From Candidatus Aminicenantes bacterium (GTDB taxonomy: Bacteria > Acidobacteriota > Aminicenantia > Aminicenantales > UBA4085): 41,015 bases of DNA. The stretch spans positions 1 to 41,015 of the forward strand of contig JAPKZH010000500.1 of NCBI GenBank assembly GCA_026393905.1, read 5' to 3'. Each line of letters opens with the position of its first letter. Position 1 is the stretch's first letter. The notes beneath the pieces are model-generated. The model had not been told where the DNA came from. It worked only from the letters and a program-made list of their open reading frames with translations, and did not search any database. Below, piece after piece: positions 1 to 40,521 of this stretch. Position numbers and translations under genes: made by a program.

Positions 1-486
1 TTTCATGACGGATTTCCACCAGGTCGACTGTATCTTTTTTCGTTTTGATCTCGGGCCGATTATTTGCTTAAATTGACGAGCTTCATCCGGATGACCCATA
101 AAGTATTGAAGCAGCTCCAGCCAGTCCACATAATCCTTCAACTCGCATTTCTTGTTTTCTCCGGTTCTCCCAGAAAACCTGCTTTTATATGAAGCGCTTC
201 TGATGATCGTGTCTACGATATACTTATCAACGAATTTAGCCAGATTCATAGCATGCTCAAATCCCGGCTGTTTGGTGTCGTCATCTTTAGCTATGAGTGT
301 GTGACATCCAAGGCGTTCGGAGTAGCGTTCGCCATTAGCAAAAGTTTTTGATGCATAGACCTTTCCCTCGCCAAGCATCTTTTGTAAAAGCCAGGAAACA
401 CATTTGGGGTCCCAATCATCGATCAATTGCCAATCGATCTTGATAAATTTCAGTTCAGCATCGCGCACCTTTTGAGGCATGTTCAT
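1..486 (-). CDS. hypothetical protein whose 3' end runs off the window (at least 162 codons); by position a candidate immunity or accessory gene for the HET-C-like effector
   Basis: Hand translation of the minus strand from ATG 486-484 (alternative ATG 480-478) gives MNMPQKVRDAELKFIKIDWQLIDDWDPKCVSWLLQKMLGEGKVYASKTF... with no stop down to position 1. It is absent from the ORF track because it has no stop inside the window. No clear SD, no signal peptide, no family recognised. Confidence 0.45.
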   Translation of the reverse strand, partial: MNMPQKVRDAELKFIKIDWQLIDDWDPKCVSWLLQKMLGEGKVYASKTFANGERYSERLGCHTLIAKDDDTKQPGFEHAMNLAKFVDKYIVDTIIRSASYKSRFSGRTGENKKCELKDYVDWLELLQYFMGHPDEARQFKQIIGPRSKRKKIQSTWWKSVMK

Positions 487-645
487 TCTGGTCTGTGTGG
501 CACTGAGAGCTAGTTCGTATTGCTCGCGCTCCTTCTTTGTTTTGGCTTCACGCCAATCCAAGAGAGCAAGGGGATCATCACATTTATCCTCTGGTTTGTT
601 GTGCTCTCCTGGACAGGGACGATCGACACGCCCGCATTTCCATGT

Positions 646-1845
646 TCATTGCGGACACGTGTGCTTTTTTCTGCTGTGGATGCCTTGACATCCTTTTGCC
701 CCGCAATTCCACTTATGGTTTTCTTTATCAGGGCAGGAATCTTCCGGCTTTTCATGGCCCGGACAGGGCGGGTCAACCCGGCGGCAATACCAGGTCCCCG
801 AGGGACAAACGTGGTCACGACGCATATGGCCGCCGCAATCTCGAGCCCCACACGTCCACTTATGTGGCTTTCTATTTGGATGACTCTCTAAGGATGTTAA
901 AAATCCTTTATAGAGTTGGGTAAGACTGAAGCGCGTATCCATTCCATCGAAGAACCCTCCCACTACGTGTGTCTCATCCTCTTTTTCTTTTCCCTCCCCC
1001 GACGGTTCCTCATCTTTTATACGCGGCTTGAGATCTCGCCACAGTCGTCTTTGATGTCTCCGGAGCAAGTCGGGATCTTTAGGGATGTCATTGATCGAAC
1101 GCATAGCAAAATCCACATAATTCGTATGAGCCCAGTAGTCCTCAGCTGTATGAAGTGCGTATCCAAACTCTGCAAGCAGGTCCGATCGACTTTTTTTGAT
1201 TGGATCTGGTTCTCCTTGCGCATTCATGAACTTTACGAGATCGCGCTCGACCAGAGTCAATATCTCCGCTATATTCAAAATGTGATCCTCTATAAATTTA
1301 TAAACTTTCTTTGAATCTGAAAATCCTTTTCGGTCTATGGGCCAGCGATCAAAATGCTCATGAGGAAAATATTGTGAAAAGCGGCTTATGCTCCCTCCGA
1401 CTTTTTTCCCATGGAAAATGCGGTCGTACTCGTCAAAGCTAATTGGTCCGGCGCCCAAGTGGACAAGGTTTTTTGAGGGGCCCTCCGGCGAACAGAATTC
1501 AACCCAACCGGCTACATAAGCGACGTTTTTAAACCATTGCGCCATAGCTGAATTGACCGGAGGCGGATTGCCCAGGAGCTCACGGATGAGTTTGTTCGCC
1601 CTCCAGTGTATGGCGATGTCCGGCACAAGATATCGAAAAATCCAGCTTTCTTTATTTTTGTCGTCGACACCCTTGTTTCTGGCATCCGTCATATTAGCGG
1701 CATAATCAACGGGGGCAACACCTTGCGACACGTCCGTAAGCCAGTTGCCGAGCAAAAGATAGCCGAGATTTTCATTAGGAAATGCCTCTCGTAACTTAGG
1801 GAGACACGCTTCTATGCCGATTATTTTGTGGTTTTTTGGGACCAT
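646..1845 (-). CDS. HET-C-like domain protein with a Cys/His-rich C-terminal tail; putative T6SS effector (predicted phospholipase C / nuclease-like fold)
   Basis: 399-aa ORF starting at ATG with a GAGGAGAG SD upstream, ending at TGA. GNWLTDVSQ (aa 33-41) and HTAEDYWAHTNY (aa 232-243) match the HET-C signatures as I remember them. No signal peptide. The last ~78 aa contain 9 Cys and two HKW[TN]CGA..C.G.H.R..H.CP repeats. It is co-directional and lies 29 nt after the preceding cargo gene. Confidence 0.65.
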   Translation of the reverse strand: MVPKNHKIIGIEACLPKLREAFPNENLGYLLLGNWLTDVSQGVAPVDYAANMTDARNKGVDDKNKESWIFRYLVPDIAIHWRANKLIRELLGNPPPVNSAMAQWFKNVAYVAGWVEFCSPEGPSKNLVHLGAGPISFDEYDRIFHGKKVGGSISRFSQYFPHEHFDRWPIDRKGFSDSKKVYKFIEDHILNIAEILTLVERDLVKFMNAQGEPDPIKKSRSDLLAEFGYALHTAEDYWAHTNYVDFAMRSINDIPKDPDLLRRHQRRLWRDLKPRIKDEEPSGEGKEKEDETHVVGGFFDGMDTRFSLTQLYKGFLTSLESHPNRKPHKWTCGARDCGGHMRRDHVCPSGTWYCRRVDPPCPGHEKPEDSCPDKENHKWNCGAKGCQGIHSRKKHTCPQ

Positions 1846-1874
1846 TTCTTAATCTCTCCTCGCCTTAAGAGTTC

Positions 1875-2738
1875 TTATGGCTCCTCTTCGAACTCTGGAA
1901 AATTTAGAACATATGATCCCGGAATGACCCCGTCAACTTTAGCATAGCCTTTATCATCGAGTGTTCCCTGTATTTCCGAACCGTCGGCAAGCTTGATGAC
2001 ATATTTGGCCCCGCTGATCGGCTCACGAGACTCGTGGAAGAGCTCAATCTCGATCCAATCCTTGAACTCCAGAAGCCCCGAATCGGCCGCCAACTCACCG
2101 AATTTTACACGGAAAAAGTACTCCGGTGGATTGTACTTATTGCCATACTTCTTCAACTCTTCTTCAGTCGGGATTTCATCCGTATCTTCAAAATATTCAT
2201 ATTCCCAATCCGCTTCGACCTTACTGTTCTTGACCAAAACCGGGAATTTAGTGATGAAATCATGAGCGTCATCAGAATCATGTTCCCAAATCTCGATTTC
2301 ACCTTCTGTGCCGTCTTGGACACCCTTCACGTCCGCCGTGAGCTTGAGGATGTCGCCCCGGCGGGCTTCTTTTTTGTCCCATTTGGCATTGGTAATTTCA
2401 ATCGGCGGCAGAACAATCAAGGGATTAGACTTCATTTGCAAGCCGTGCTTGGGCAACTTTACATCAGCATAAAGCGCCTGTTTGGCTTCTGCCGGCACCT
2501 TGATTTGTGTCCAGAACCGGTTTCCCGAGATTTTTTCTGCATACTTTCCAAACGTTTTGCCGTTTTGATCTGATAATTCGATTTCAATTTTCGAACCATT
2601 GCCAACGAACTGTGTATAAATTTCCAATCCAATCGATCCGCCCGGTGCGGCCCTTCTCACCGTCCACAGGACGCATTGGATAGCCGAGGGAAGCTGGACC
2701 TTCTTGATTTGGTCGGTCGGACTCTGATGCTTGGACAT
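1875..2738 (-). CDS. beta-sandwich repeat protein paralogous to the C-terminal extension of the PAAR protein; possible adaptor or co-secreted cargo
   Basis: 287-aa ORF, ATG start, TAA stop. By hand alignment aa 113-287 match aa 197-363 of the PAAR protein at roughly one-third identity. Shared strings include AKW.K....G...KLTA..G...GT.G, K.EA.WEY, PE..F, SGLL...DWIE, KY...L..G....G.LD..G.AKV...IPG. Confidence 0.7.
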   Translation of the reverse strand: MSKHQSPTDQIKKVQLPSAIQCVLWTVRRAAPGGSIGLEIYTQFVGNGSKIEIELSDQNGKTFGKYAEKISGNRFWTQIKVPAEAKQALYADVKLPKHGLQMKSNPLIVLPPIEITNAKWDKKEARRGDILKLTADVKGVQDGTEGEIEIWEHDSDDAHDFITKFPVLVKNSKVEADWEYEYFEDTDEIPTEEELKKYGNKYNPPEYFFRVKFGELAADSGLLEFKDWIEIELFHESREPISGAKYVIKLADGSEIQGTLDDKGYAKVDGVIPGSYVLNFPEFEEEP

Positions 2739-2753
2739 GGACTTAACAGTATT

Positions 2754-4028
2754 TTATTGAAGGCAAAATATTTTTCGAACTCCAGCCAAATAGACTCTGC
2801 CGTCTTCATCCATGACGGGACGACAGGTGACCGGGTCATCGAGTTGAACCTTGCAGAGTTCTTTGCCTTCTGCCGAAATATGATAAAAAAGCACTCCGCC
2901 TGCAACGAGCACCGAACCGTCCTTCAAGACGGAGATCAATGCTTTTCCCGGCTCGACAACGAGCCCCCGGTTCCAGAGCTCCTGCCCTTCCTTGAAGCAA
3001 AGAAGCCGGTTTTTCTCCATTATATAAACCCTTCCATCCGGGTGGCTTGCCGGTGGCTGGCCTGTGAGCGTTGCCCTTCCTAGAGGGGCCTCCCAGCCTG
3101 GGCTTCCATCCCGGAGAATCATTTTCAGAATAAAGCGTTCTTCTCTGTCCTCCCTGTATTCCTGATGTTCGATAAGGAGCACATTGCCTTGGTAGTCTAG
3201 GGCACAAGAAACGACTTCTTCAAAAGGCACAATTCTTACCCCCGCCTCAGAATTCGCCTTGGGATCAAGGAGATAGATCTCAGTTGTCCGGGGTATACAA
3301 ACGAAACTCAGACTTTTGTCTAACAGCGCGTCTAAGGCAAATCCTTGCCCAACAAACTCCCATTCGATATTTCTTGGTTCAACATTCAGCCTAATGAATG
3401 TCCAAAAGGGACCCTGCGCTTTCTGCCCCGGTTCGCTGACAGGAGAAGGCGAGGTTTGATAGGAATAGATCATGCTTCCGTCCAGTCTCTGGCTCATAAA
3501 AAGGAAGGTCTTGCTTCCCAAAAAAGGGAGCGAAAGTTTTTTTGAGGGATGCCCTTCCAGGTTGATGATCTCATAATAGCCAGCCTGATCCAAGGTCACA
3601 AGTCCTTCTTTCTTCAGGTCAAAGGCATAATTGGAGAAGACTTCACGGTGCCAGAGCGGCCGGCCTGACATGCGGTCACGAACATCGAAGACGGGGCCAT
3701 AACTTATGATGAGATGGGTCTTTGTGAGGGCGATGGTTCGCGGCGGCATCGGATTCTTGCCGAGAACCGTCTCCTGTTCCCAAGCCTTAGTCCCCTTGAG
3801 CTTCTTGGCCACATCGAGATAGGAAGTGTTTTGAGTATCCCCATATATCTTCGTGTTAAGAAAAATTGCCTCGGCCATTTTCCCCTCCTGACATCCTGTA
3901 TGAATGATTCCGGCGGCGGCCCCAAACAGAATGACCCCGGTCAGACACGCTGCCAGGATTTTGCCCGTTTGTTTCTCCATGGGCTGGAATCCATTCCAGT
4001 CCGCTGAACGCGACCTCCCACGATTCAT
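2754..4028 (-). CDS. N-terminally membrane-anchored (or lipoprotein) beta-propeller-like protein (PQQ/BamB-like repeats); candidate immunity protein
   Basis: 424-aa ORF, ATG 4028 (alternative ATG 3980), TAA stop. Hydrophobic segment ILAACLTGVILFGAAAGIIHTGC near the N-terminus. Repeated G.vy......l.c....G..lW-type strands (DGRVYIMEKNRLLCFKEGQELW, DGSVLVAGGVLFYHISAEGKEL, DGRVYLAGVRKIFCL). It starts 18 nt after the 1156-aa gene. Confidence 0.6.
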   Translation of the reverse strand: MNRGRSRSADWNGFQPMEKQTGKILAACLTGVILFGAAAGIIHTGCQEGKMAEAIFLNTKIYGDTQNTSYLDVAKKLKGTKAWEQETVLGKNPMPPRTIALTKTHLIISYGPVFDVRDRMSGRPLWHREVFSNYAFDLKKEGLVTLDQAGYYEIINLEGHPSKKLSLPFLGSKTFLFMSQRLDGSMIYSYQTSPSPVSEPGQKAQGPFWTFIRLNVEPRNIEWEFVGQGFALDALLDKSLSFVCIPRTTEIYLLDPKANSEAGVRIVPFEEVVSCALDYQGNVLLIEHQEYREDREERFILKMILRDGSPGWEAPLGRATLTGQPPASHPDGRVYIMEKNRLLCFKEGQELWNRGLVVEPGKALISVLKDGSVLVAGGVLFYHISAEGKELCKVQLDDPVTCRPVMDEDGRVYLAGVRKIFCLQ

Positions 4029-4046
4029 TGGATCGTCAACTTTTTC

Positions 4047-7000
4047 TCAGAACTCCTCCAGCGAAAAATTTTCGCCTAAGCTGCTCAATTTGTTATTCAC
4101 CCAATCTCTCAAGAAGGCGAAGGCGGCCTTCCACGTCGTCTGGGCGTTGAGGAAATAAGTGACCAATTGATCGGCGGTCGCATCATTATAGACCGTGACT
4201 GTCCCTGCCGCATTAGGAAAAAAATCCCCAGTACCGGGATAGTTGGTCTTCAGAAATTCAAGGATATAATGTTGGCCCGTTGAAGTGGCACTATCCGTGA
4301 AACCGGGCAAGAAATGAATATAGATATTCTTCATGTCATGAGCGCCGTCCTTGAGACGATAATGGCCGCCAAAAGCCAGCCATTTCTGATGAATATCATA
4401 AACCCTCATCCGTTTCTGCACATTCGTCCATGCGCCATGAGAGAAATCAACCCTGAGCAGGACCCGGACAACAAGAACACCTTGATATTGGATGGGCTCT
4501 TGATTCAGATGAAAATATTTGATCGACGACTCATCTTTGCCAACATCATAGAGCTCAAGGCTCAGCCTCCGCAAGGGCGTGGCCGTTAATCGATAAGCCT
4601 TTTCGCTCTCAATCGGATCCGTCATTTTATCCTTTATTGTAGGCTGCCCGGCGGCCCCGATTTTTCTTGTATAAGTAATATCCCAGGAGTCTCGGACCAG
4701 CCTGGCAACGAAGGTTTTCCCGCCCAGTTTTTGCGATAACAGAGAAGAAGCGGTCTGGATTTCTCGATTAATTTTGTGCAGCGCATACCACAGATGGTGC
4801 AAACGGGGAGCGGCATTCCGGTACATCATTGACGGAAAATTGGCTTCCATCGAATAGGGGATGTAATACTGCTCCAAGTCAGGAAAGCTCTGCTTGTTGG
4901 GTTCCGGGCGATAACTGTCTTTGACATATTCATCGGGCTTGCCTGTCGCATGGCCCAGCTCATGAGCAAATGTATGAGCGCCATATTGGTCGCCATGCTC
5001 TGTTACAGGCACTCCGGTAAAAATATCATTCCAGCATTTATAGCCAGACTTGTTGAGCTTGAACAGAGAATAATGCGTGGGTCCTTCATTCCGGATGCTC
5101 CACTGCCAGGCGTCTCCCCAATGGCCGTTTTCGTCACCGCTGACAAGGGCCAAAAACTTGGATCTTCCCCCTAAAGCCGTCTGTTGAGCTGTTTTAAGAT
5201 TCGCATGGTTGAACAGCATGACATGGTTGGAAGCAGGATTATCGGCCGGCCTTTTTTCAAAGTCGATTTTGAATCCTCCCGGAGGAACAGTGACCGAGAA
5301 CGTTTCGCGCTCATCATAAATATAGTAAATCCTGATGATTGTCGAGTCTGACGAGTTGGGTCTCTCCTCCAGAAAATACCGTTTTCTATTCCACTCCTCC
5401 ATGGCCAGATAGACACCTTCATCCACATATTTCTGAACATCGGCTTGAGCTGGAACGGCTGGAATGGCTGGAACGGCCGCCGGATCCCGGGTGTCGAGCA
5501 TAAAACTGATGGAAACATGATAAATGGCATAGGAGACAGGATGCGTGCCGTCGAAGTGAAGGTGATGGAAGTAATGAAGGTCATAATCTCCTGTCGAGCC
5601 ATATTGGTCATCGACGAAAAGCATCGTATAAAGCAGATGATAATCCCTATCGTTCCGGACAGCCGCTCTGGCTCCCACGACAAACCCCTTCTTTTCCCAA
5701 TCCGGCGCCAGCGGTGTTCTTCTGCCTCCGATGGTATAAAAACCATCTCGAAAAAAAATGATTTTGGCCCCCTTCCTCACTTCGGGATTCCCCACGACGA
5801 GATTCCTGGGAAATGAAATTCTGGAAGAGGCCAACGTGTTTGGATCCGGTTGGTAGAGCTTTAGGAATCCAGTTGCCTCGTCCATCAGGATGATTCTTAT
5901 CCGGGAGACCGAGGTCCTTCCGCTCTGGCTGAGGTCCATGGCCACAGCGGGAATTTCGTGATTGGCGTCCTTGATATCTTGGGTCCCGCTGATGCCGTCT
6001 AAGAGGACAATATCATCCAGACAAAAAATCAGAGGATTGCCGGTATCTGTCGTGCCCTGCCCTAGGGGTTTCAATTTCTTTTCCTGTTCAAATACCTTTT
6101 CAAATCGCTCGCTCTTGCCTGTCGCAAGATCTCCATCATAATAGGTCCAATAATTCCGGGAAGACCAAAGGGCGGGAAGATCATAATAATGCGTTCTCTG
6201 TTCCAGGCTAAGGTTCTTGATCTCGGCTGGAGTTTTGGTGACGATGACTGGCGTAGCGCCTTTTTTTTCCGTATAAACCCACTGGTTTTCAGTCTTGAAT
6301 TCGAAGTGGAGGCTCTTATGTTTGCCATCGTCAAGGGGCGATTTGAAATGGACTTTGAGACAATAAACCCCCTTCTTCCATGATCCCTTCGTCTGGAGTT
6401 CCTCAGTCTCATTTTCAAACGCCTGGATCTTCAATCCCTCCGGAACCGCGGTTACCGCGTTCTCGACGCTATTAAAAAATTGAAAGCTTAGGTGGTAGAC
6501 GACGGCGTAGAGGTCGAGAGCGTCGATGTAGTGAGGTTCAAAATGGAGTTTGTAATAGAGGGGACAGACTTCGGCCTTGTGGGTGGATTTGACGTCGGCC
6601 GGGCAATCCATATAGGGAGCTTCTTTGCCCTCAAAGAAAAGGATCTCCACCCGGCGGTTTCTTTGGGAGCGGTAATTCGGTTTCTCCTTCTGGTCGATGG
6701 GAAAGGATTCGCCGCAGCCGACGACCTTGCGCTGGACATCGACCCATTTGTTTGGATCCTCCCGAAGGATCCTCCGGCGATTCTCCACACCGTCCTTCGT
6801 CTCCATAAAGATGCGGGCCATTTCCGCGCTATAGAGCTCAAAGACCGCCTTCCAGAGATCTTTTGTCCATCGCTTTTGACCATCCTTCTCAACTGTTTCA
6901 TGAAGGAGAGAAGAAAGAGGAGGGAGCTTCGGGTCCTGCTTTTCCGCAAAGTCTGTATTATAAGATTCGACAAAATTCCTGATGGCTTCCTTGGTCTTCG

Positions 7001-7517
7001 CGTTCCAGCTGTCGTTGATATCGCCGGGATCGCAGGGCCATTTATACGGCGCATTGTCGGCGAAATACTTAAGAATTTGCTGGTAGTCCTCGATCTTCTG
7101 TTTTTCATAGCAGATGTCCGCCCAGCGGTCTCCCTCCCCCGTCACGAGGCAGAGGACATTTTGGGCCCGGAGCTTCGAAAGTGCAAAATTGTAGTCGGGC
7201 TGGCCGGAAGTATCCGTATGGCCGGCGATGATCATCTTTTTGTCCGGGTAGAATTCGAAGTGCTTAAAAACAAGGGCGAGGGCTTTGATCCCGGTGATGT
7301 TTTCCTGGCCGTCGGGCGCCTGGCTGCCGTCCTTGGAGGATTTCCCCTTGGGATTTTCGGGCATCATCACAGCGCTGTTGTGGTGGAAGAGGACATCTTC
7401 CATCTCGAGGATGTAGACCTGGACGCGCCGGAGCGTGAACTCGTAGGTCTGATGGCTGTAGGTAAAGACCTTGCCCAAGAGATCCCGGCAAATGACGTCT
7501 CTTTTAAGGGAGCCCAA
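4047..7517 (-). CDS. large signal-less protein with an N-terminal OmpA-like peptidoglycan-binding domain and a C-terminal HExxH zinc-metallopeptidase motif; putative T6SS effector
   Basis: 1156-aa ORF starting at TTG 7517, 17 nt after the PAAR stop, ending at TGA. OmpA_C-like signatures: FHHNSAVMM, IIAGHTDTSGQPDYNFALSKLRAQNV, NRRVEILFF. HTFAHELGHATGKPDEY sits at aa 848-864, with HELGH encoded at nt 4950-4964. No N-terminal hydrophobic segment. Confidence 0.75.
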   Translation of the reverse strand: MGSLKRDVICRDLLGKVFTYSHQTYEFTLRRVQVYILEMEDVLFHHNSAVMMPENPKGKSSKDGSQAPDGQENITGIKALALVFKHFEFYPDKKMIIAGHTDTSGQPDYNFALSKLRAQNVLCLVTGEGDRWADICYEKQKIEDYQQILKYFADNAPYKWPCDPGDINDSWNAKTKEAIRNFVESYNTDFAEKQDPKLPPLSSLLHETVEKDGQKRWTKDLWKAVFELYSAEMARIFMETKDGVENRRRILREDPNKWVDVQRKVVGCGESFPIDQKEKPNYRSQRNRRVEILFFEGKEAPYMDCPADVKSTHKAEVCPLYYKLHFEPHYIDALDLYAVVYHLSFQFFNSVENAVTAVPEGLKIQAFENETEELQTKGSWKKGVYCLKVHFKSPLDDGKHKSLHFEFKTENQWVYTEKKGATPVIVTKTPAEIKNLSLEQRTHYYDLPALWSSRNYWTYYDGDLATGKSERFEKVFEQEKKLKPLGQGTTDTGNPLIFCLDDIVLLDGISGTQDIKDANHEIPAVAMDLSQSGRTSVSRIRIILMDEATGFLKLYQPDPNTLASSRISFPRNLVVGNPEVRKGAKIIFFRDGFYTIGGRRTPLAPDWEKKGFVVGARAAVRNDRDYHLLYTMLFVDDQYGSTGDYDLHYFHHLHFDGTHPVSYAIYHVSISFMLDTRDPAAVPAIPAVPAQADVQKYVDEGVYLAMEEWNRKRYFLEERPNSSDSTIIRIYYIYDERETFSVTVPPGGFKIDFEKRPADNPASNHVMLFNHANLKTAQQTALGGRSKFLALVSGDENGHWGDAWQWSIRNEGPTHYSLFKLNKSGYKCWNDIFTGVPVTEHGDQYGAHTFAHELGHATGKPDEYVKDSYRPEPNKQSFPDLEQYYIPYSMEANFPSMMYRNAAPRLHHLWYALHKINREIQTASSLLSQKLGGKTFVARLVRDSWDITYTRKIGAAGQPTIKDKMTDPIESEKAYRLTATPLRRLSLELYDVGKDESSIKYFHLNQEPIQYQGVLVVRVLLRVDFSHGAWTNVQKRMRVYDIHQKWLAFGGHYRLKDGAHDMKNIYIHFLPGFTDSATSTGQHYILEFLKTNYPGTGDFFPNAAGTVTVYNDATADQLVTYFLNAQTTWKAAFAFLRDWVNNKLSSLGENFSLEEF

Positions 7518-7534
7518 GGGATTTTTTCCTGTGC

Positions 7535-8626
7535 TTATTTCCGAGGGTCGAGGAAGATCTTCACTTTGCCCGGCGGGATGTCCTTGACTTTGGCGTGTCC
7601 GCTTGAATCGAGTTTCCCTTCCCGGGTCTCGCCGCTGGCCAGATAAAGCTTGTATTTTTTATTGGCCAGGGGATTCCCCTGATCGTCTTTGAAGGTGAAT
7701 TCGATCCAGTCTCGATAGGTGAGCAGCCCCGAACGCGACTCGCAGTTCTCGACGCCGGCCACGAAATAGAATTCGGGGGCCGAATAGGGCTCGTCCTGCG
7801 TTTTCAGGTTCTTTTCCTCCAGAGATTCTTGACGAATAACGTATTCCCACTCGGCCTCGATCTTGTCGCCTTGAACTTGGGTCTCGATGGTCACGTGGAG
7901 AATATCGGGCTTATTAATGTCCCGCCTGAAAACCTGAAAGACGCCTTTTGTTCCGTTTTCGAACCCGATGGTTTCGGCCGTCAGCTTGACCTTCTCTCCG
8001 ACTTCGGGATTGTTTTTTGACCACTTGGCGCTGTGGACGCTGAATAGCTGAGCATTACACTGGCCGGCGTTCAATGCATCGCGGCAGATCCGGCCGTCCG
8101 GCTTCAAAACTCCCTTTGACTCTTTGCCACTAGGGTCGGTAAATTTGTAATGAACGCCGCTGACCGGTTTGCCGGCTTTATCGACGAACTCAAACTCGAC
8201 CCAGTGCTCTGCTTTCGTCGAAGCTTCCTTGTTATCAGAAAGCGCTGTAGCGGCGGCGATATGCGCTGCGGCTGCAGAACTAAGGCCGACTTTGATCGGT
8301 CCCGGCCCTGCGGCGGCTCCAGCCATTGTCTCACCGATCAGGACCGTAAAACAGCCTAGGGCAATCATATCCGGGGGCCCAACGCACATAGCCATGTCTC
8401 CCATTCGTGCGGCCGGCATCCCGCCAATCAAAACTCCAAAACTCCCCAGGATGACAGGTCCCCCGACATGAGGAATGGGGGGAACGCCTGGAGTGAGCAT
8501 CGGGCAGACATGCATATCTGATATCCGCGCGGCCGGCATCCCGCCGATGAGGACGGTCGGCCACCCCATGACGATCGCCCCGCCATGGGCCGTCATATCG
8601 CCGATTCGCGCCGCCGGTTTTCCCAT
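7535..8626 (-). CDS. PAAR-domain spike-tip protein with a ~260-aa C-terminal beta-sandwich (transthyretin/carboxypeptidase-regulatory-like) extension
   Basis: 363-aa ORF starting at ATG with an AGGAAGGAGAG SD, ending at TAA. Three PAAR motifs (KPAARIGD, MPAARISD, MPAARMGD) lie within aa 1-100 and are followed by an Ala/Gly linker. Two W[IV]EF.F.D..G.P......Y.......G....G.L...G modules follow. It lies immediately downstream of vgrG. Confidence 0.9.
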   Translation of the reverse strand: MGKPAARIGDMTAHGGAIVMGWPTVLIGGMPAARISDMHVCPMLTPGVPPIPHVGGPVILGSFGVLIGGMPAARMGDMAMCVGPPDMIALGCFTVLIGETMAGAAAGPGPIKVGLSSAAAAHIAAATALSDNKEASTKAEHWVEFEFVDKAGKPVSGVHYKFTDPSGKESKGVLKPDGRICRDALNAGQCNAQLFSVHSAKWSKNNPEVGEKVKLTAETIGFENGTKGVFQVFRRDINKPDILHVTIETQVQGDKIEAEWEYVIRQESLEEKNLKTQDEPYSAPEFYFVAGVENCESRSGLLTYRDWIEFTFKDDQGNPLANKKYKLYLASGETREGKLDSSGHAKVKDIPPGKVKIFLDPRK

Positions 8627-8654: not shown

Positions 8655-10844
8655 CTAATTGATCATAACAACGCCGCCCTTAATCGTCGTCATCCCGCTT
8701 CCACTCACATTCGTCATCGGGCTTTCAAGATTGGCCATCAGCCCGCCTTTGGCCTCGAGCATCATGCCTCCCTCGATCTTCGCATTCATATCCGCTTTCA
8801 TTTCAGTATTCAGGCCTTTCAGCTTCAGGTCCATGTTGGCTTTCGCGGAAATGCCCATATCGGCCTTTAAATCGTAATTCGCGCACTTCTCCTTGATATC
8901 GGCGCTCGCTTCCATCTCGTAGTTTCCGCTAGCTTCGCATTTGATGTTGGCCGCCTTGAGCGACGTGTCCGCTGAGGTTTCGATGTTCAGCGTCGTGGCC
9001 TTGATTTCGATCGTCCCGTTCGGCGCGTGCATGTCGATGCTCCCATCCTTTGTCTTGATGACGAGCTTGTTGTTGGTGATATCGATGATGAAGATATTCG
9101 CGTCGGCTTTATCGGCCACGGTGATGCTTTCCCCTCCGCTCGAATCGTCGATGCACAGGCGGTGGCCGTTCTTGCTCTGGACGGTGATCTTGGTGTTTTT
9201 ATCATCCATGATCATCAGGTGGCCGTCGGTCGTCTGAACGGTGATATTCTTGTTTTTGTCATCGAACGTGAACTTGTGTTTCTTGGTGGTCACGATCTCA
9301 ATCTTATCGTCTTTATCATCCAGCAAGACTTTATGGCCATCCGTCGTGGTGATCCCGATTTGAGACTCATTTGTTTTGTCGTCCAGGACGATCTCGTTTC
9401 CCGCGGCCGTACGGATGATGCTTTGAGATTTATTATCTCTGGTCACAGGAGAGACTTGGGAGGGGTTGGGGACCGTGCCAAGGCCGATCGGCCGGTCCAG
9501 ATCTCCGTTGATGCAGGAAAAAATCATTTCTGTATCCGCATGGTTGGGAAAATGGACGCCGTATCCCGGACCAGAATAAGGCTGGATCAGGCGAATCGGC
9601 CGGGAGGCCTCTCCGTTTGTCTTATCACTCAAGTCGAACAAAAGTTTAGCTTTGTAGCGGCCGTGGTCATCGACGAAAGCATATTCATCTCCGGCTCCGG
9701 ATTCTACCCTGGCCGTCATAACGCCCGGGATGGTGGGGACGGGCGTAATCCGAGGTGGACGATACTTGATCTCCATCGGAATCGCCTCAAAAACGTTCTC
9801 GAAGGTGGGGAGGACTTGCTTGGCTTCAGGCAGGATGGCGAACAGACCCCGCTGTGTCCCGCGGGAAACGACTTTGGTGAGGATCAATTCCTTGTCATTC
9901 CAGTCGTCGCGATAGTGTTTTCCCATTTTGAACTTGAAACCCGCCAGGAAAAGCCGGCAATCGCCTCGCCCTTTGAAGATTTTGCTCCGGGACAGGATTT
10001 CCTCGTTCCTCACTTTGGCCAGGAACTCCCCCTCGCGGGTCTCTTTGTAATGATCGCCGTATTCATAATACAGGCCGGGCGCATCCGGGTCGATCTGGCT
10101 CTCCACCGTCAAATCTTTCGAAGGAAAGCGATAGTTGTAATTCTTGAGCCGGACCAGTCCGGTGACGACCTGGGCCTGGTAGGAAATCTCGTCAATCGTC
10201 TCCTTCTGGCTCAAGGGATCACTGTTGGGATTGTAGTAGATATCCTCGGCCTGCTCGATCGACGGCAAGGTATCGTTGGAGTCCGTAAAAACGATCACAT
10301 CGTTCTCGCTGCGATGATCAAAGTAATAGAAAATGCCGTAGTGCTCCAGGCGGCGGTTGATGAAATCAAAATTCGTCTCTCGGAATTGGACGGCGTACTC
10401 GAGATCGGGATAGGATTCTCGGAGGTCAAACTTGTAATCCTGCCCTGAGAAGCCGGAATTCTTGAGGACTTGAGTGACGATCTTCTCGACGTTCATTTTC
10501 TGGAAGACTTCGTTGGCAAACGTCAGCTCCAGGCGCCACATCTTTGGCACGAGCTCGGCATAATACGAGATATAGCGAGGGGTTCTGCCGCGCTGCTCGA
10601 AACGCGAGATGATGCCCTGGATTTTGACCGGATCCTCATCTCCTCTGTTCAGGATAAAGGTGGCCTTTTTATTAAGGATGGCGGCGGGATCAAGCTCCGG
10701 CTCATAAGAAAGGAGTTCGATGCGGTAGATGAAAAGCCGGGAGATCGATTCCTCTCCCTCGAAGGCGAGGACGTGGACAGTATCCTCCGGGAGTCCGCTG
10801 AAGTGGAGTTCAAAGTGAGGTTTATTGTGTTTTGGTTTCGCCAT
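8655..10844 (-). CDS. vgrG: T6SS spike protein VgrG (TssI)
   Basis: gp27/gp5-like sequence with no C-terminal effector domain. The C-terminal beta-helix repeats (ITTTDGHKVLLDDKDDKIEIVT, ITVQTTDGHLMIMDDKNTKITVQS) end in GGVVMIN. I moved the start to ATG 10844 (AGAGAGG SD) rather than ATG 10859. Stop is TAG. Confidence 0.93.
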   Translation of the reverse strand: MAKPKHNKPHFELHFSGLPEDTVHVLAFEGEESISRLFIYRIELLSYEPELDPAAILNKKATFILNRGDEDPVKIQGIISRFEQRGRTPRYISYYAELVPKMWRLELTFANEVFQKMNVEKIVTQVLKNSGFSGQDYKFDLRESYPDLEYAVQFRETNFDFINRRLEHYGIFYYFDHRSENDVIVFTDSNDTLPSIEQAEDIYYNPNSDPLSQKETIDEISYQAQVVTGLVRLKNYNYRFPSKDLTVESQIDPDAPGLYYEYGDHYKETREGEFLAKVRNEEILSRSKIFKGRGDCRLFLAGFKFKMGKHYRDDWNDKELILTKVVSRGTQRGLFAILPEAKQVLPTFENVFEAIPMEIKYRPPRITPVPTIPGVMTARVESGAGDEYAFVDDHGRYKAKLLFDLSDKTNGEASRPIRLIQPYSGPGYGVHFPNHADTEMIFSCINGDLDRPIGLGTVPNPSQVSPVTRDNKSQSIIRTAAGNEIVLDDKTNESQIGITTTDGHKVLLDDKDDKIEIVTTKKHKFTFDDKNKNITVQTTDGHLMIMDDKNTKITVQSKNGHRLCIDDSSGGESITVADKADANIFIIDITNNKLVIKTKDGSIDMHAPNGTIEIKATTLNIETSADTSLKAANIKCEASGNYEMEASADIKEKCANYDLKADMGISAKANMDLKLKGLNTEMKADMNAKIEGGMMLEAKGGLMANLESPMTNVSGSGMTTIKGGVVMIN

Positions 10845-13473
10845 GGCTGCCTCTCTCATTGAAGGTATATTTAAAATTGCCCTCTTTGTCCTTGCCGACT
10901 TTGAGATGCGTCGGCGTTTTTCCCTCGGCCATGAAGCCGAGCAGATAAGTCGCTATATCCGGAGTGATTTTGCGGTCAATGATCGCGTCGATGTTTCTGG
11001 CTCCCGTCTCTGCGCTGGTGCAGGATTCGACAATGTCTTTGATAACGGCTTTGGCAAATTCCACTTCAAGCTTCTGGTTCTCCTTGAGCTTGCGGCTGAT
11101 TCGGGAAAGCTTCAGCTCCACAATTTGCTTCAGGACGTCCTGGTTGAGAGGGAGGAGAAGAATGGGCTTGACGCGGCCGAGAAACTCGGGCCGGAAATGC
11201 TGGATGAGATAGGGACGCATCTCTTCCAGAAGCCCATCGGGAGAAGTCACTCCCTGCTCGATTTTTTTAAAGATGACCTCCGAAGCCAGGTTGGAAGTCA
11301 TGAAGATGATCGTGTTGTTGAAGCTGATCTGCCGTCGCTCCGAATCCTGGAGCATCCCCCGGTCGAAAACCTGCATGAAGAGGTCGATGACGGAGTGGTT
11401 GGCTTTCTCGATCTCATCTAGGAGGACCACGCAATAGGGACGGCGGCGGACCGGCTCGCTGAGCGCTCCTCCTTCTCCGTAGCCGATAAGTCCAGGATCG
11501 GCACCGATGAGGCGCGAGGTGTTGTATTCGTTCTGGTACTCCGTCATGTTCAGGGTCACGATGAACCTTTCGTCTCCGAACAGAGCCTCGGCGACCGCCC
11601 GGGCAAGCTCGGTCTTCCCAACTCCGCTCGGCCCGATGAGGAAGAAAACTCCGATCGGAGCTTCTTCCCTTTTCAGCCCGACTTTTGTCCCCCGGATTAC
11701 GTCCGCGATCTGCTTGATAGCATGGTCCTGACCGATGACTCGCTTCTTAAGCTCTTCCTCCATCTGGAGGATGGTGGCCATCTCGTCCCGAGTCATCTTG
11801 CCGACGGGGATGCCCGTCCAGGACTCGATGACTTCGGCCACAGTCATAGGGGTGACATCGGCAAAGACTTGAGGATGGTCTCCCTGGTACGTTTTGATCT
11901 CTTCGCTGAGAGCCGTGGTGTCTTTCTCGATCTGGACACGGTCAGGGGATTTTGGATCCGCCGCGAATTTTTTTATGCGGAGCTCTCTCAGCTTGTTGAT
12001 GAGTTCAACCTCTTTCTTCCAGCGCTCCTCCTTTTCCTGGATCTCCTTTTCCAGCTGGGATTTTTCTTCGTTCAAGCGCGACAGCTCCTGCGAGTTATCC
12101 ATGATCTTCAGGTCATGATCTTTTTCGAGCGCGGCAATTTTCAGCTTATAGGAATTCAGGTCGCTCAGGAGGAGCGCCAGGCTCGGAGGCCGGCTGGTCA
12201 GCGACATCTTCACCCGGGTGGCCGCTGTATCGAGAAGGTCAATCGCCTTGTCGGGAAGCTGGCGGCCGGCAATGTACTTACGAGAAAGCTTGACGGCGGT
12301 CTCGACGGCGGTGTCGGAGATATGGATTCCGTGATAGGCTTCGTATTTGGTCTTGATCCCCCGGAGCATGAGCATGGCTTTCTCATCATCCGGCTCGCCG
12401 ATATGGATCGGCTGGAAACGGCGTTCCAGGGCGGCATCCTTGGCGAAGTACTTGTTGTATTCGAGATAGGTCGTCGCCGCGACGGCCCGAAAGTCGCCGC
12501 GGGCCAGGGCGGGCTTGAGGAGGTTAGCCGCATCGCCGCCCCCCGCCGACGCACCCGCGCCGACGAGGGTATGAGCCTCATCGATAAACAGGATGGTTTT
12601 ATGGATGGACTTGGTGACCTCGTTGATGACGGCCTTGAACCGCTGCTCAAATTCGCCGCGCATCTTTGTCCCAGCCTGCAGAGCGCCCAGGTCAAGGGTG
12701 TGGATCTGGACATTCTTGAGGACATCGGGGACCTCATCGGCGGCAATTTTGAGCGCCAGGCCTTCGACCACGGCCGTCTTCCCCACTCCCGGCTCGCCCA
12801 GGAGAATGGGGTTTGATTTTTTCCTTCGGCTCAAAACTTCGGTGATCTGGATGATCTCGTCATCGCGGCCCAGGATCGGGTCAATCTTTCCTTCCTTGGC
12901 CTGAGCCGTAAGGTTGGTGGTGTAGATATCGAGCACGCTTCCGCCCGGGGGAATTTCCCTGGCCTGTTCGGCCGGCAGAGTCTCCATGGCAGCCGCCTCA
13001 TCCTCCACCGATCCGGTCACGAACTTGTGAAACTCTGTGGTCAGTTCCTCCTGGTTGATCCTGGAAAGGACATCCATCAACCCGGTGCTGATGATCTGTT
13101 CTGAAGCGATAAAGACCTCAAAGAGAGCGCCCGAACGGATCTTGGTCTCTTTGTGGTGGACGGAGCTTGTGATCCAGGCCTGTTCCAGGAGTTCGGTCAA
13201 CAGGGGAGAGAGCTTGGGCTTTCCCGGATTGCCCGTGGCCATCTCGTCCAGGTTTCGGGTGCAAATCTCCTGGACGCGGCCGGAATCGATGGCATAGTGT
13301 TTCAAGATGAGCGGGACATCTCCCTGTCCGTCCTCGATGAGGGAGTTCAAGAGGTGTTCCATCGTGATTTCGTAGTTTCCTCTCTTGATTCCTATTCCCG
13401 TTGCCGTGTCAAGGTTCCGGATGAGGTGGTTGTTGAGTTTGAGGAGGAGTGCCCTTAGGTCTTTGCTTTTCAT
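10822..13473 (-). CDS. clpV: T6SS AAA+ ATPase ClpV (TssH)
   Basis: 883 aa with a ClpB-like architecture. Two Walker A motifs (GEPGVGKTAVVEGLA, GPSGVGKTELARAVA), a coiled-coil middle region and a ClpV-type N domain. Its end overlaps the vgrG start by 23 nt. Confidence 0.95.
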   Translation of the reverse strand: MKSKDLRALLLKLNNHLIRNLDTATGIGIKRGNYEITMEHLLNSLIEDGQGDVPLILKHYAIDSGRVQEICTRNLDEMATGNPGKPKLSPLLTELLEQAWITSSVHHKETKIRSGALFEVFIASEQIISTGLMDVLSRINQEELTTEFHKFVTGSVEDEAAAMETLPAEQAREIPPGGSVLDIYTTNLTAQAKEGKIDPILGRDDEIIQITEVLSRRKKSNPILLGEPGVGKTAVVEGLALKIAADEVPDVLKNVQIHTLDLGALQAGTKMRGEFEQRFKAVINEVTKSIHKTILFIDEAHTLVGAGASAGGGDAANLLKPALARGDFRAVAATTYLEYNKYFAKDAALERRFQPIHIGEPDDEKAMLMLRGIKTKYEAYHGIHISDTAVETAVKLSRKYIAGRQLPDKAIDLLDTAATRVKMSLTSRPPSLALLLSDLNSYKLKIAALEKDHDLKIMDNSQELSRLNEEKSQLEKEIQEKEERWKKEVELINKLRELRIKKFAADPKSPDRVQIEKDTTALSEEIKTYQGDHPQVFADVTPMTVAEVIESWTGIPVGKMTRDEMATILQMEEELKKRVIGQDHAIKQIADVIRGTKVGLKREEAPIGVFFLIGPSGVGKTELARAVAEALFGDERFIVTLNMTEYQNEYNTSRLIGADPGLIGYGEGGALSEPVRRRPYCVVLLDEIEKANHSVIDLFMQVFDRGMLQDSERRQISFNNTIIFMTSNLASEVIFKKIEQGVTSPDGLLEEMRPYLIQHFRPEFLGRVKPILLLPLNQDVLKQIVELKLSRISRKLKENQKLEVEFAKAVIKDIVESCTSAETGARNIDAIIDRKITPDIATYLLGFMAEGKTPTHLKVGKDKEGNFKYTFNERGSHGETKTQ

Positions 13474-39085: not shown

Positions 39086-39198
39086 TTGCAGAGACCGTTT
39101 GACCCGCGACTTTTCTCCCGGATTCCAGTTTGAGAAATTGAACGGCATGGGATTCTAAGGAAAAGAGACTAAGCAGGACCGGCCTTTTCCCCTGACAC

Positions 39199-39420
39199 TC
39201 AGCGGAATGAGGAAAAGATCTTCTGGAAGGCCGACTTTTTGATCATCTTCTGCATGTCCTGGAACTGCTTGAGGAGCTGGTTGACCTCGTGGACGGGACG
39301 ACCGCTTCCCCGGGCGATCCGCTGGCGCCGGCTGCCGTTGATGATCCTGGGGTCGAGCCGTTCCCCCGGCGTCATGGCGTTGATGATCGCCTCGAAATGG
39401 AGGATCTGCCGGTCATCGAC
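39199..39420 (-). other. ffh: in-frame continuation of the ffh M domain after the TAG at 39421-39423 (73 codons plus TGA)
   Basis: Hand translation in the same frame gives [73 protein letters not shown]. This is the conserved SRP-RNA-binding part of Ffh. Confidence 0.85.
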
Positions 39421-40521
39421 CTAAACCTTGTCCAGGTTTTTAAACGGCCCCGTCCCCGGCAGGTGGCTGAGCACGCCGGATAGGGATCCCATCTTTTTGA
39501 GGTGACCCAGCTGTTTCTTGAAATCCTCGAGCGTAAACTCCTGCTTGCGGATCTTGCGGGCCAGTTCTTCGGCCTCTTCCTGGTCGGCCTCCTGCTCGGC
39601 CTTTTCGATCAGCGTCAGGATATCGCCAAGGCCCAGGATGCGGGAGGCCATGCGGTCCGGATAAAAAACGTCCAACTTGTCGAACTTCTCCCCTACGCCG
39701 ACGAATTTGATGGGCATCCCCGTAACGGAAACAATCGATAGAGCGGCGCCGCCCCGGGCATCCCCGTCCAGCTTAGTCAGGATGACCGAGGTCAGGCCGA
39801 TCTTTTCGGCGAAGGCTTGGGCGCTCTTGACGGCGTCCTGGCCGGTCATCGAATCGCCAACGTAGATCACCTCGACGGGATTGAGGATATTCTTGACCAG
39901 CCGTAACTCATCCATCAACTCCTCGTCCACATGCAGGCGTCCCGCCGTATCGACCAGCAGAAGGTCGTAGCCGCGGTTTCTGGTGAATTTCATGAGCTCG
40001 CTCAGGGCGTCTTCAGGGGCGGCCATCTGCGATGAGGTCATTTCGTAAAAAGGAAGCTTGAGGTTTCCGGCGATCATTCTCAGCTGGTCCTGAGCCGCCG
40101 CCCTTTTCATGTCGAAGGAGACGAGAAGCGGGTTTTTCCCCCGGCCGAGCGCCCACTTGGCCAGCTTTCCGCAAGTCGTCGTCTTCCCGCTTCCCTGCAG
40201 CCCGACCAGCATGAAAATGGAAGGCGGTGCGCTTGAAAAAGTCAACGGCTTGTCCGACCCGCCCAGGATCTCGGTCAGCTCGTCCCGGACGATTTTGATG
40301 ACCTGCTGCGCCGGCGTGAGGCTGTCGAGGACGTCCTGGTTGAGGGCTTTGACTTTGATTTTCTGCTCGAAATCCTTGACAACCTTGTAGTTGACGTCGG
40401 CCTCGAGCAGGGCTAAGCGGATCATCTTGAGGGCCTCAGCCATGTTTTTCTCGGTGACTTTTCCCTCGCCGCGGAGGAACTTCATCACCTTCTGGAGCCG
40501 GTCCGAAAGCTGGTCAAACAT
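39421..40521 (-). CDS. ffh: signal recognition particle protein Ffh (N and G domains and the start of the M domain); the ORF ends at an in-frame TAG
   Basis: 366 aa: MFDQLSDRLQ..., P-loop GLQGSGKTTTCGKLA, DTAGR, TKLDGDARGG, and the M-domain start LGHLKKMGSLSGVLSHLPG. Confidence 0.9.
   Translation of the reverse strand: MFDQLSDRLQKVMKFLRGEGKVTEKNMAEALKMIRLALLEADVNYKVVKDFEQKIKVKALNQDVLDSLTPAQQVIKIVRDELTEILGGSDKPLTFSSAPPSIFMLVGLQGSGKTTTCGKLAKWALGRGKNPLLVSFDMKRAAAQDQLRMIAGNLKLPFYEMTSSQMAAPEDALSELMKFTRNRGYDLLLVDTAGRLHVDEELMDELRLVKNILNPVEVIYVGDSMTGQDAVKSAQAFAEKIGLTSVILTKLDGDARGGAALSIVSVTGMPIKFVGVGEKFDKLDVFYPDRMASRILGLGDILTLIEKAEQEADQEEAEELARKIRKQEFTLEDFKKQLGHLKKMGSLSGVLSHLPGTGPFKNLDKV

Follow-up and report, generated by a model that had tools for sequence, protein, structure and literature searches.

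We report here a reanalysis of a 41,015-bp contig from Candidatus Aminicenantes bacterium (GenBank JAPKZH010000500.1), which is hereafter called the window and carries, at its left end, a Het-C-family gene linked to a type VI secretion system (T6SS). An initial annotation, made from the sequence without database searches, had described the open reading frame (ORF) at 646..1845 on the minus strand (399 amino acids (aa)) as the last complete gene of a vgrG-PAAR cargo string, encoding a HET-C-like toxin with a Cys/His-rich C-terminal tail. Our analysis supports a different gene model. Positions 1-1845 (minus strand) are likely to represent the front of a ~773-codon Het-C T6SS cargo gene that contains an inserted Cys/His module and is broken by a single substitution creating a stop codon. 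What was annotated as a 399-aa ORF is either a truncated product that lacks the second conserved block of the Het-C domain (block 2) or an artefact of sequence error. Het-C has been catalogued as a predicted toxin domain since 2012; what looks new, and merits further work, is the module.

The Het-C gene beyond its annotated stop

The 399-aa ORF has a start codon as well as a plausible ribosome-binding site, and it is closed by a TGA stop at codon 400. Past this TGA (positions 646-648), the minus-strand frame contains no stops in 215 codons, up to window position 1, compared with 10 and 16 stops in the other two frames of the same stretch; the chance of such an open stretch is ~5e-5. The window being the whole contig, the gene leaves it at position 1, with ~158 codons absent, and the first 615 of ~773 codons (1..1845, minus strand) are present, as judged from the open frame, the coverage by homologs and the intact relatives. 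Thus, this is not the last complete gene of the string.

A homology search with the read-through translation yielded 13 proteins. Coverage of the query is 100% for the closest one, P0001 (773 aa, 99% identical), and for P0002-P0004 (766-779 aa, 54-63% identical); P0005-P0010 (652-695 aa) retain both flanks and lack the Cys/His stretch. All 13 extend beyond the position of the insert, 12 of them with the block-2 motif, and none ends at the position of the TGA. Four metagenome contigs (L001-L004) are 99.7% identical to the window across the Het-C gene and encode an intact 773-aa protein; the two longer ones are 97.8% identical over ~8.2 kb, and the gene order matches that of the window in those long enough to show it. 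Among the six differences from these contigs within 1845 nucleotides (nt), one is the TGA/GGA change and the five others are ordinary substitutions. The NCBI annotation of the contig calls two fragments, of 399 and 160 aa, that belong to the same 90% cluster as the intact 773-aa protein, and this cluster includes a further intact 773-aa member, P0074.

The repeat within the Cys/His stretch runs on across the stop: ...HTCPQ(stop)TWKCGRVDRPCPGEHNKPEDKC parallels ...HVCPSGTWYCRRVDPPCPGHEKPEDSC of the first copy. The 399-aa and 160-aa calls are, by sequence comparison, fragments of one gene. Two separate genes in the same frame were rejected, given that a repeat unit extends across the stop, that the homologs are all fused, and that the first in-frame start, 28 codons past the stop, has no Shine-Dalgarno sequence that is obvious by eye. 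For annotation, the lesson is that two gene calls correspond to one gene, on a contig with at least two suspicious in-frame stops.

The assignment to Het-C in the initial annotation was borne out by profile searches. Pfam Het-C (PF07217) is the only family matched by the 399-aa ORF, above the gathering cut-off (23.0 bits, E 3.5e-5, cut-off 21; 23.8 bits for aa 1-320 alone), and is matched by all 13 homologs, with a best E-value of 2.4e-11. Comparison of the family alignment with P0015, a LysM-containing protein with a strong Pfam Het-C match (E 4.5e-34), using hhalign gave a probability of 97.2% and an E-value of 3.7e-11 over aa 218-314. The Tox-HET-C motifs have been listed as H, [DE], HxD, HxxxDxxxH, Nxx[DE] and [ST]G (PMC3482391), and the motif order is the same in the window protein, where H6, D38, H164xD166, H232xxxD236xxxH240 and N242xxD245 are invariant or nearly so in the homolog alignment; the last motif is G296G297, with TG in 4 homologs. 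Two motifs singled out in the initial annotation, GNWLTDVSQ (nt 1723-1749) and HTAEDYWAHTNY (nt 1117-1152), were both placed exactly. On this sequence evidence, membership in the Het-C family is supported, and the gene is a new member of a predicted, biochemically uncharacterised effector class.

Two conserved blocks can be delineated in this domain. Block 1 (aa 1-316; 898..1845, minus strand), defined by the Pfam match, the invariant columns, the hhalign alignment and the published motifs (PMC3482391), includes H6, GNWLTD38, PH162EH164FD166, H232TAED236YWAH240TN242YVD245 and VVGG297FFDGMDT. Block 2 starts at aa 428, is defined by invariant or near-invariant columns and is present in the window up to aa 615 (1..564, minus strand), entirely downstream of the TGA; in relatives, it extends to ~aa 665. 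It holds RLGCH515TLIAK520D521D (nt 280-315) and VDWLELLQYFMGHPDEA (nt 79-129). A scan of GTDB representatives detected Het-C homologs with ~25% identity in many phyla, and tblastn against 55 distant bacterial Het-C loci recovered conserved blocks at aa 1-316 and ~509-650 separated by a variable linker. The block-2 motif R-[IL]-G-[CS]-H-[ST]-L-x-[AC]-K-D (H515, K520, D521) is kept from Bacillota to Actinomycetota to Planctomycetota, and P0015 has SHTQVAKDD at this place. Block 2 is probably a catalytic part of the Het-C domain. Since it lies after the TGA, the 399-aa product would be without this conserved portion; a complete Het-C domain in one product is encountered in L001-L004 and not in this contig. 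With just 15 clusters among 5.8 billion sequences, the subfamily is very small, and it differs from the other bacterial Het-C proteins, to which it is ~25% identical, by the Cys/His insert in the linker and by a C-terminal beta-sandwich.

The nature of the in-frame TGA

Compared with L001-L004, a single G-to-T substitution on the coding strand converts GGA (Gly400) to TGA (646..648, minus strand). At this position of the module alignment, the four homologs with the insert invariably have Gly, and they do so in both halves of the module. Elsewhere in the window, TGA is the stop codon of 10 genes and TAG that of 4, including the in-frame TAG of ffh discussed below. The T6SS genes that end at TGA or TAG reach the full length of the respective Pfam models, so the standard genetic code applies, and an alternative code was rejected on this ground. 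A search for isolated in-frame stops with long open frames on either side detected one other case that is not a gene boundary, in ffh (SRP54; 39196-40521, minus strand), where a TAG (39421-39423) occurs and the M domain continues in frame. The ffh gene is essential in bacteria, and a stop in it suggests base errors in the contig. With two nonsense codons on one 41-kb contig, a sequence error is at least as likely as a real pseudogene.

We assign about an even chance to the TGA being an error of sequencing or assembly, in which case the gene of the organism is intact and encodes 773 aa, and there is no 399-aa ORF in vivo. The second stop in the essential ffh gene of the same contig argues for this, as do the intact genes of the four near-identical contigs with the P0001 protein, along with P0074, and the fact that the change strikes an invariant Gly. 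However, assembly errors are typically indels rather than clean substitutions, and the five further ordinary substitutions in the gene point to a distinct strain, which may carry a true nonsense variant. That the TGA is a genuine nonsense mutation, and the Het-C effector gene a recent pseudogene in this strain, is a substantial possibility, if short of probable: effector genes are dispensable and often decay, the contig comes from a separate strain (97.8% identity over 8.2 kb), and NCBI calls the two fragments, of 399 and 160 aa. At most, the product would then be a fragment of 399 aa that retains block 1 and 9 of the 12 module Cys and has lost block 2 and the beta-sandwich. The stop in the essential ffh tips the evidence towards error here, and the 215 codons past the TGA have acquired no frameshifts or extra stops.

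The two remaining explanations have little in their favour. A complete, natively functional 399-aa Het-C toxin with a dedicated C-terminal Cys/His tail would fit the start, the stop and the plausible ribosome-binding site of the ORF, and all six Tox-HET-C motifs of PMC3482391 come before residue 300. Nevertheless, this model is very improbable, given that every one of the 13 homologs continues past the insert (12 with the block-2 motif), that the stop breaks a tandem repeat in the middle of a unit, and that the conserved H-T-L-x-A-K-D-D block is located after the stop. Recoding of the TGA, by selenocysteine insertion or programmed read-through, would yield the full-length protein, and the in-frame TGA in a Cys-rich context is what might bring it to mind; we regard it as nearly negligible. 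The TGA aligns with an invariant Gly, not Cys, and is a regular stop that terminates 10 other genes in the window. No hairpin resembling a selenocysteine insertion sequence was found in the 72 nt from the TGA, where the RNA is less stable than shuffled controls (minimum free energy -10.5 kcal/mol, compared with -14.05 on average for the shuffled sequences; z +1.45), and the sequence 3' of the TGA is identical in the relatives that carry GGA. Recoding was rejected for these reasons.

The Cys/His module

The Cys/His module spans aa 328-422 (~95 aa; 580..864, minus strand), as defined by the alignment of the insert-bearing homologs and by profile search, and is located in the variable linker between the two conserved Het-C blocks. 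Rather than a C-terminal tail, as the initial annotation had it, it is an internal insert in a ~773-aa protein. It consists of four units of the form W-x-C-x4-6-C-x2-3-H-x6-C, with the TGA within unit 3/4; 12 Cys, 4 His and 4 Trp do not vary among the four homologs with the insert. This pattern suggests four Cys3His metal sites, most likely occupied by four Zn ions. The last 78 aa of the 399-aa ORF (nt 649-882), for which 9 Cys and many His had been noted, indeed hold 9 Cys and 8 His; the full module has 12 Cys. The two-copy repeat pattern proposed earlier captured two similar copies, HKWTCGARDCGGH...HVCP and HKWNCGAKGCQGIH...HTCP, which differ by a one-residue indel, the first copy being one residue shorter than the proposed pattern. 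The stretch is, as claimed, GC-rich compared with the rest of the gene (GC 0.55 versus 0.45-0.47), but only about as GC-rich as the window on average (0.52), as the T6SS core has a slightly lower AT content than the cargo genes. Shadow ORFs do overlap the stretch, a trivial feature. The resemblance of its 'P-x-C-P-G-H' to the CDGSH (2Fe-2S) motif was discarded, as the module gave no Pfam zf-CDGSH match.

The suggestion that the stretch is a separable, fused module was right in spirit. A profile search against 1.84 billion representative proteins found the module in 57 proteins at E<=1e-3, and in 39 at E<=1e-10. In ~25 representatives, it occupies residues 1-100, starts with M-x-x-W-x-C-G and is not preceded by a signal peptide; in ~12, it is C-terminal, and in some, it is internal or present twice. 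The domains to which it is fused include YkuD_2, DUF4329 (Tox-JAB-2), Polysacc_deac_1, GH134, Ntox4, eCIS_core (DUF4157), Prok-JAB, PLD nuclease and PG_binding_1, and HExxH peptidase-like regions are visible in the sequences of module proteins. The module itself had no match in Pfam (in the window protein and 55 module proteins) or NCBIfam, and the module profile found no PDB sequence at E<=10; a non-exhaustive literature search turned up no earlier account of it. A degenerate DNA pattern covering one and a half module units, with 0 matches expected in the window, matched once in the window and in 29 metagenome contigs, mostly short ones.

As the initial annotation had proposed looking for, the repeat occurs in other T6SS cargo proteins. 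In L077, the order is TssF-TssG-ClpV-VgrG-DUF4123 adaptor-127-aa protein-module toxin of 631 aa, and in L091, it is TssB-TssC-Hcp-module protein-...-TssF. The module gene stands between the end of ClpV and VgrG in L092, and is flanked by PAAR in L088 and by Hcp in L072; on the contig of P0029, a protein combining eCIS_core with the module, Hcp is the next gene. The module thus behaves as an accessory domain that is portable among polymorphic toxins linked to T6SS. Since its partners are catalytically unrelated, a role in loading, delivery or stability appears more plausible than one in catalysis. Tentatively, and with somewhat less than even confidence, we propose that it is a previously undescribed metal-binding accessory domain of T6SS cargo, portable across at least a dozen toxin and enzyme families, at either terminus or in the Het-C linker, that might load the cargo onto the spike or Hcp, or keep it folded or inactive until delivery. 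In being common to unrelated toxins, it is similar to the known T6SS markers and adaptors (MIX, FIX, RIX, DUF4123/Tap, DUF1795/Eag and PAAR with a transthyretin (TTR) extension); unlike these, it is unrelated to them in sequence, variable in position, Cys/His-rich and presumably metal-bound, its loading role being putative. If it is a delivery or stability domain, it would be a new sequence marker by which environmental bacteria can be searched for T6SS effectors.

Two further features of module proteins were observed. A C-x-x-G-A-x-L-L motif, which could be a conserved linker or a processing site, follows right after the module in P0019, P0023, P0024, P0028, P0029, P0031-P0033, P0047 and P0053, before the toxin domain or the protein end. 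Furthermore, an MTS-type methyltransferase of ~520 aa is encoded beside a protein with a C-terminal module in two unrelated contigs, L091 (1567-3126, minus strand) and L065 (841-2412, plus strand); the module partners have 238 and 318 aa, and the L091 pair lies inside a T6SS cluster.

T6SS context, predicted fold and proposed function

The placement of the gene at the end of a vgrG-PAAR cargo string holds. The window encompasses a complete T6SS cluster, all on the minus strand: tssJ, fha, tssK, tssL, tssM, tagF, tssA, tssB, tssC, hcp, tssF, tssG, clpV, vgrG (8655-10859; Pfam Phage_GPD 5e-71), a PAAR gene with a TTR-like extension (7535-8626; PAAR_motif 1.5e-21) and then four cargo genes, the Het-C gene being the fifth downstream of vgrG. 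Directly upstream of the Het-C gene, a 287-aa protein is encoded (1875..2738, minus strand) that ends in a prealbumin/TTR-like domain and is paralogous to the extension at the C-terminus of the PAAR protein (BLASTP E 1e-27, PAAR protein aa 143-353).

The same linkage is seen in the nearest homologs. In L001 and L002, Het-C is linked to vgrG and PAAR as in the window, and in the loci of P0003 and P0002 (L005 and L006), the order is TssF-TssG-ClpV-VgrG-(PAAR-extension-like)-284 aa-Het-C-DcrB/DUF1795-like-Fha/SLT-PP2C-PEGA-kinase. Orthologs of the 287-aa protein precede Het-C in L001, L002, L005 and L006, and TTR-like relatives adjoin Het-C genes in the unrelated loci L094 (4349-4597, minus strand), L023 and L029, the last of which has VgrG, the TTR-like domain and then Het-C. 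This recurrent pairing suggests an adaptor role for the 287-aa protein. Downstream of Het-C, beyond the window, a gene for a DcrB/DUF1795-like protein (~183 aa; L001 8814-9173, L005 12325-12876, L006 9462-10016) is found in all close relatives, its start overlapping the Het-C stop in L005 and L006; it could encode an immunity protein or an Eag-like chaperone. L001-L006 provide intact, T6SS-embedded examples of Het-C, with the TTR-like gene upstream and the DcrB-like gene downstream, that could be cloned.

Delivery of Tox-HET-C proteins (a family that includes fungal HET-C and P. syringae PhcA) by T6SS has been listed before as one of several routes (PMC3482391). Evolved VgrGs with LysM and Het-C have been described in Acinetobacter bereziniae and Stenotrophomonas maltophilia (PMC6838775, PMC13055248), tying Het-C to the T6SS spike, as here. 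Unlike in those proteins, Het-C in the window is a separate cargo gene that has no LysM and comes with a TTR-like partner and the Cys/His insert. For the family as a whole, enzymatic activity is a prediction. In agreement with the initial annotation, no experimental work on a Het-C effector of a bacterial T6SS was found in a literature search.

The AlphaFold2 (AF2) model of a full-length relative, P0001 (mean predicted local distance difference test (pLDDT) score 72.8, predicted template modeling score 0.75), shows blocks 1 and 2 as all-helical, leaves aa 321-428 without a confident structure, and ends in a beta-sandwich (C-terminal, aa 669-771) that falls outside the window. This sandwich weakly resembles the PirA insecticidal toxin and jelly-rolls of carbohydrate-binding modules (Foldseek E ~2.5e-3, target TM 0.55-0.64), and all matches of the full model were jelly-rolls, obtained through the sandwich. 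A relationship to Zn-dependent phospholipase C (PLC; B. cereus PLC, the N-domain of C. perfringens alpha-toxin) and S1/P1 nucleases had been put forward in the initial annotation. A shared all-alpha prediction and a similar number and order of His and Asp speak for it, a likeness that draws in part on Zhang et al. 2012; by contrast, the spacing of the ligands differs, and the Het-C domain is about twice as long and is divided by the variable linker. A lenient Pfam search gave a single match to Zn_dep_PLPC, for P0005 (E 0.03, 14.7 bits, below the cut-off of 26.8), with neither Zn_dep_PLPC nor S1-P1_nuclease matched by the window protein, and a profile search of PDB with the family profile returned spurious vimentin matches only.

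The intact protein, as it occurs in near-identical relatives, combines block 1 (H/D/HxD/HxxxDxxxH/NxxD), the ~95-aa module, block 2 (~aa 430-665, with G-x-H-T-L-x-A-K-D-D) and the C-terminal beta-sandwich. We envisage that it would be loaded on the VgrG/PAAR spike, possibly via the TTR-like 287-aa paralog of the PAAR extension, and that it would work as a metal-dependent phosphoesterase once in the target cell. As a substrate, lipid or another envelope component may be slightly favoured over nucleic acid, considering the LysM domains of P0015 and of the evolved VgrGs of Acinetobacter (PMC6838775) and the PG_binding_1 neighbours in our data. The Cys/His module would be an autonomous, portable accessory domain, most likely for loading and delivery or for cargo stability, not catalysis.

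Several observations weigh against this proposal. The Pfam Het-C match in the window protein spans only 27 residues (aa 225-251). A Foldseek search of the PDB with the helical part, represented by the model of aa 1-554 of P0005 (a natural homolog without the insert, the sandwich being left out; pLDDT 72.2), returned nothing at E <0.5, although models with pLDDT ~72 and low-confidence active-site loops around HxD and [ST]G limit this test of the fold. The PLC/S1-P1 fold is therefore not confirmed; it goes back to the borderline profile result of Zhang et al. and the similar order of His and Asp. For the module, AF2 yields no confident fold (pLDDT <50), and its metal binding and role are deduced from the conserved Cys and His and the genomic context only. 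Two module loci, L080 and L085, contain no T6SS genes. None of the genes could clearly be assigned an immunity function, and the DcrB/DUF1795-like protein lacks a signal peptide. Finally, P0004, which bears the insert, P0005 and P0010 are encoded outside T6SS loci, and only 1-2 of the 55 distant Het-C loci are T6SS-linked, so that delivery by T6SS is a property of a clade and not of the entire family.

Another explanation is that the Het-C protein is an envelope or housekeeping hydrolase that happens to be encoded in a T6SS island, and the module, a redox or Fe-S sensor. The loci of P0004, P0005 and P0010, two of which have PG_binding_1 neighbours, and the unproven immunity gene would fit such a hydrolase. 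As for the sensor, Cys3His sites can also bind 2Fe-2S clusters, for example, in CDGSH proteins; here, however, zf-CDGSH was not matched in Pfam. A resident hydrolase is further disfavoured by the location of Het-C, conserved among the closest relatives, between vgrG and fha/pppA/ppkA, by the fusion of the module to typical polymorphic-toxin domains behind vgrG-DUF4123 or hcp, and by the lack of a signal peptide. On the last point, the initial annotation was correct: read directly, the N-terminus of the window protein is hydrophilic, with no hydrophobic stretch. We consider this explanation unlikely and favour a T6SS cargo protein.

The remaining cargo genes lie between the PAAR gene and that of the 287-aa protein. 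The first (4047-7517, minus strand) encodes a 1156-aa protein with an OmpA-like peptidoglycan-binding region (aa 79-125) and a HELGH/M6-like metalloprotease region (aa ~800-866), which probably represents a second cargo effector. The next gene (2754-4028, minus strand) encodes a 424-aa protein with an N-terminal hydrophobic segment and a weak match to PQQ/BamB-like beta-propellers, possibly an immunity protein. The cargo genes (1-8626) are AT-richer (GC 0.47 for Het-C and 0.475 for the 287-aa gene) than the T6SS core (8655-29903; 0.526), a contrast that is consistent with an exchangeable effector island.

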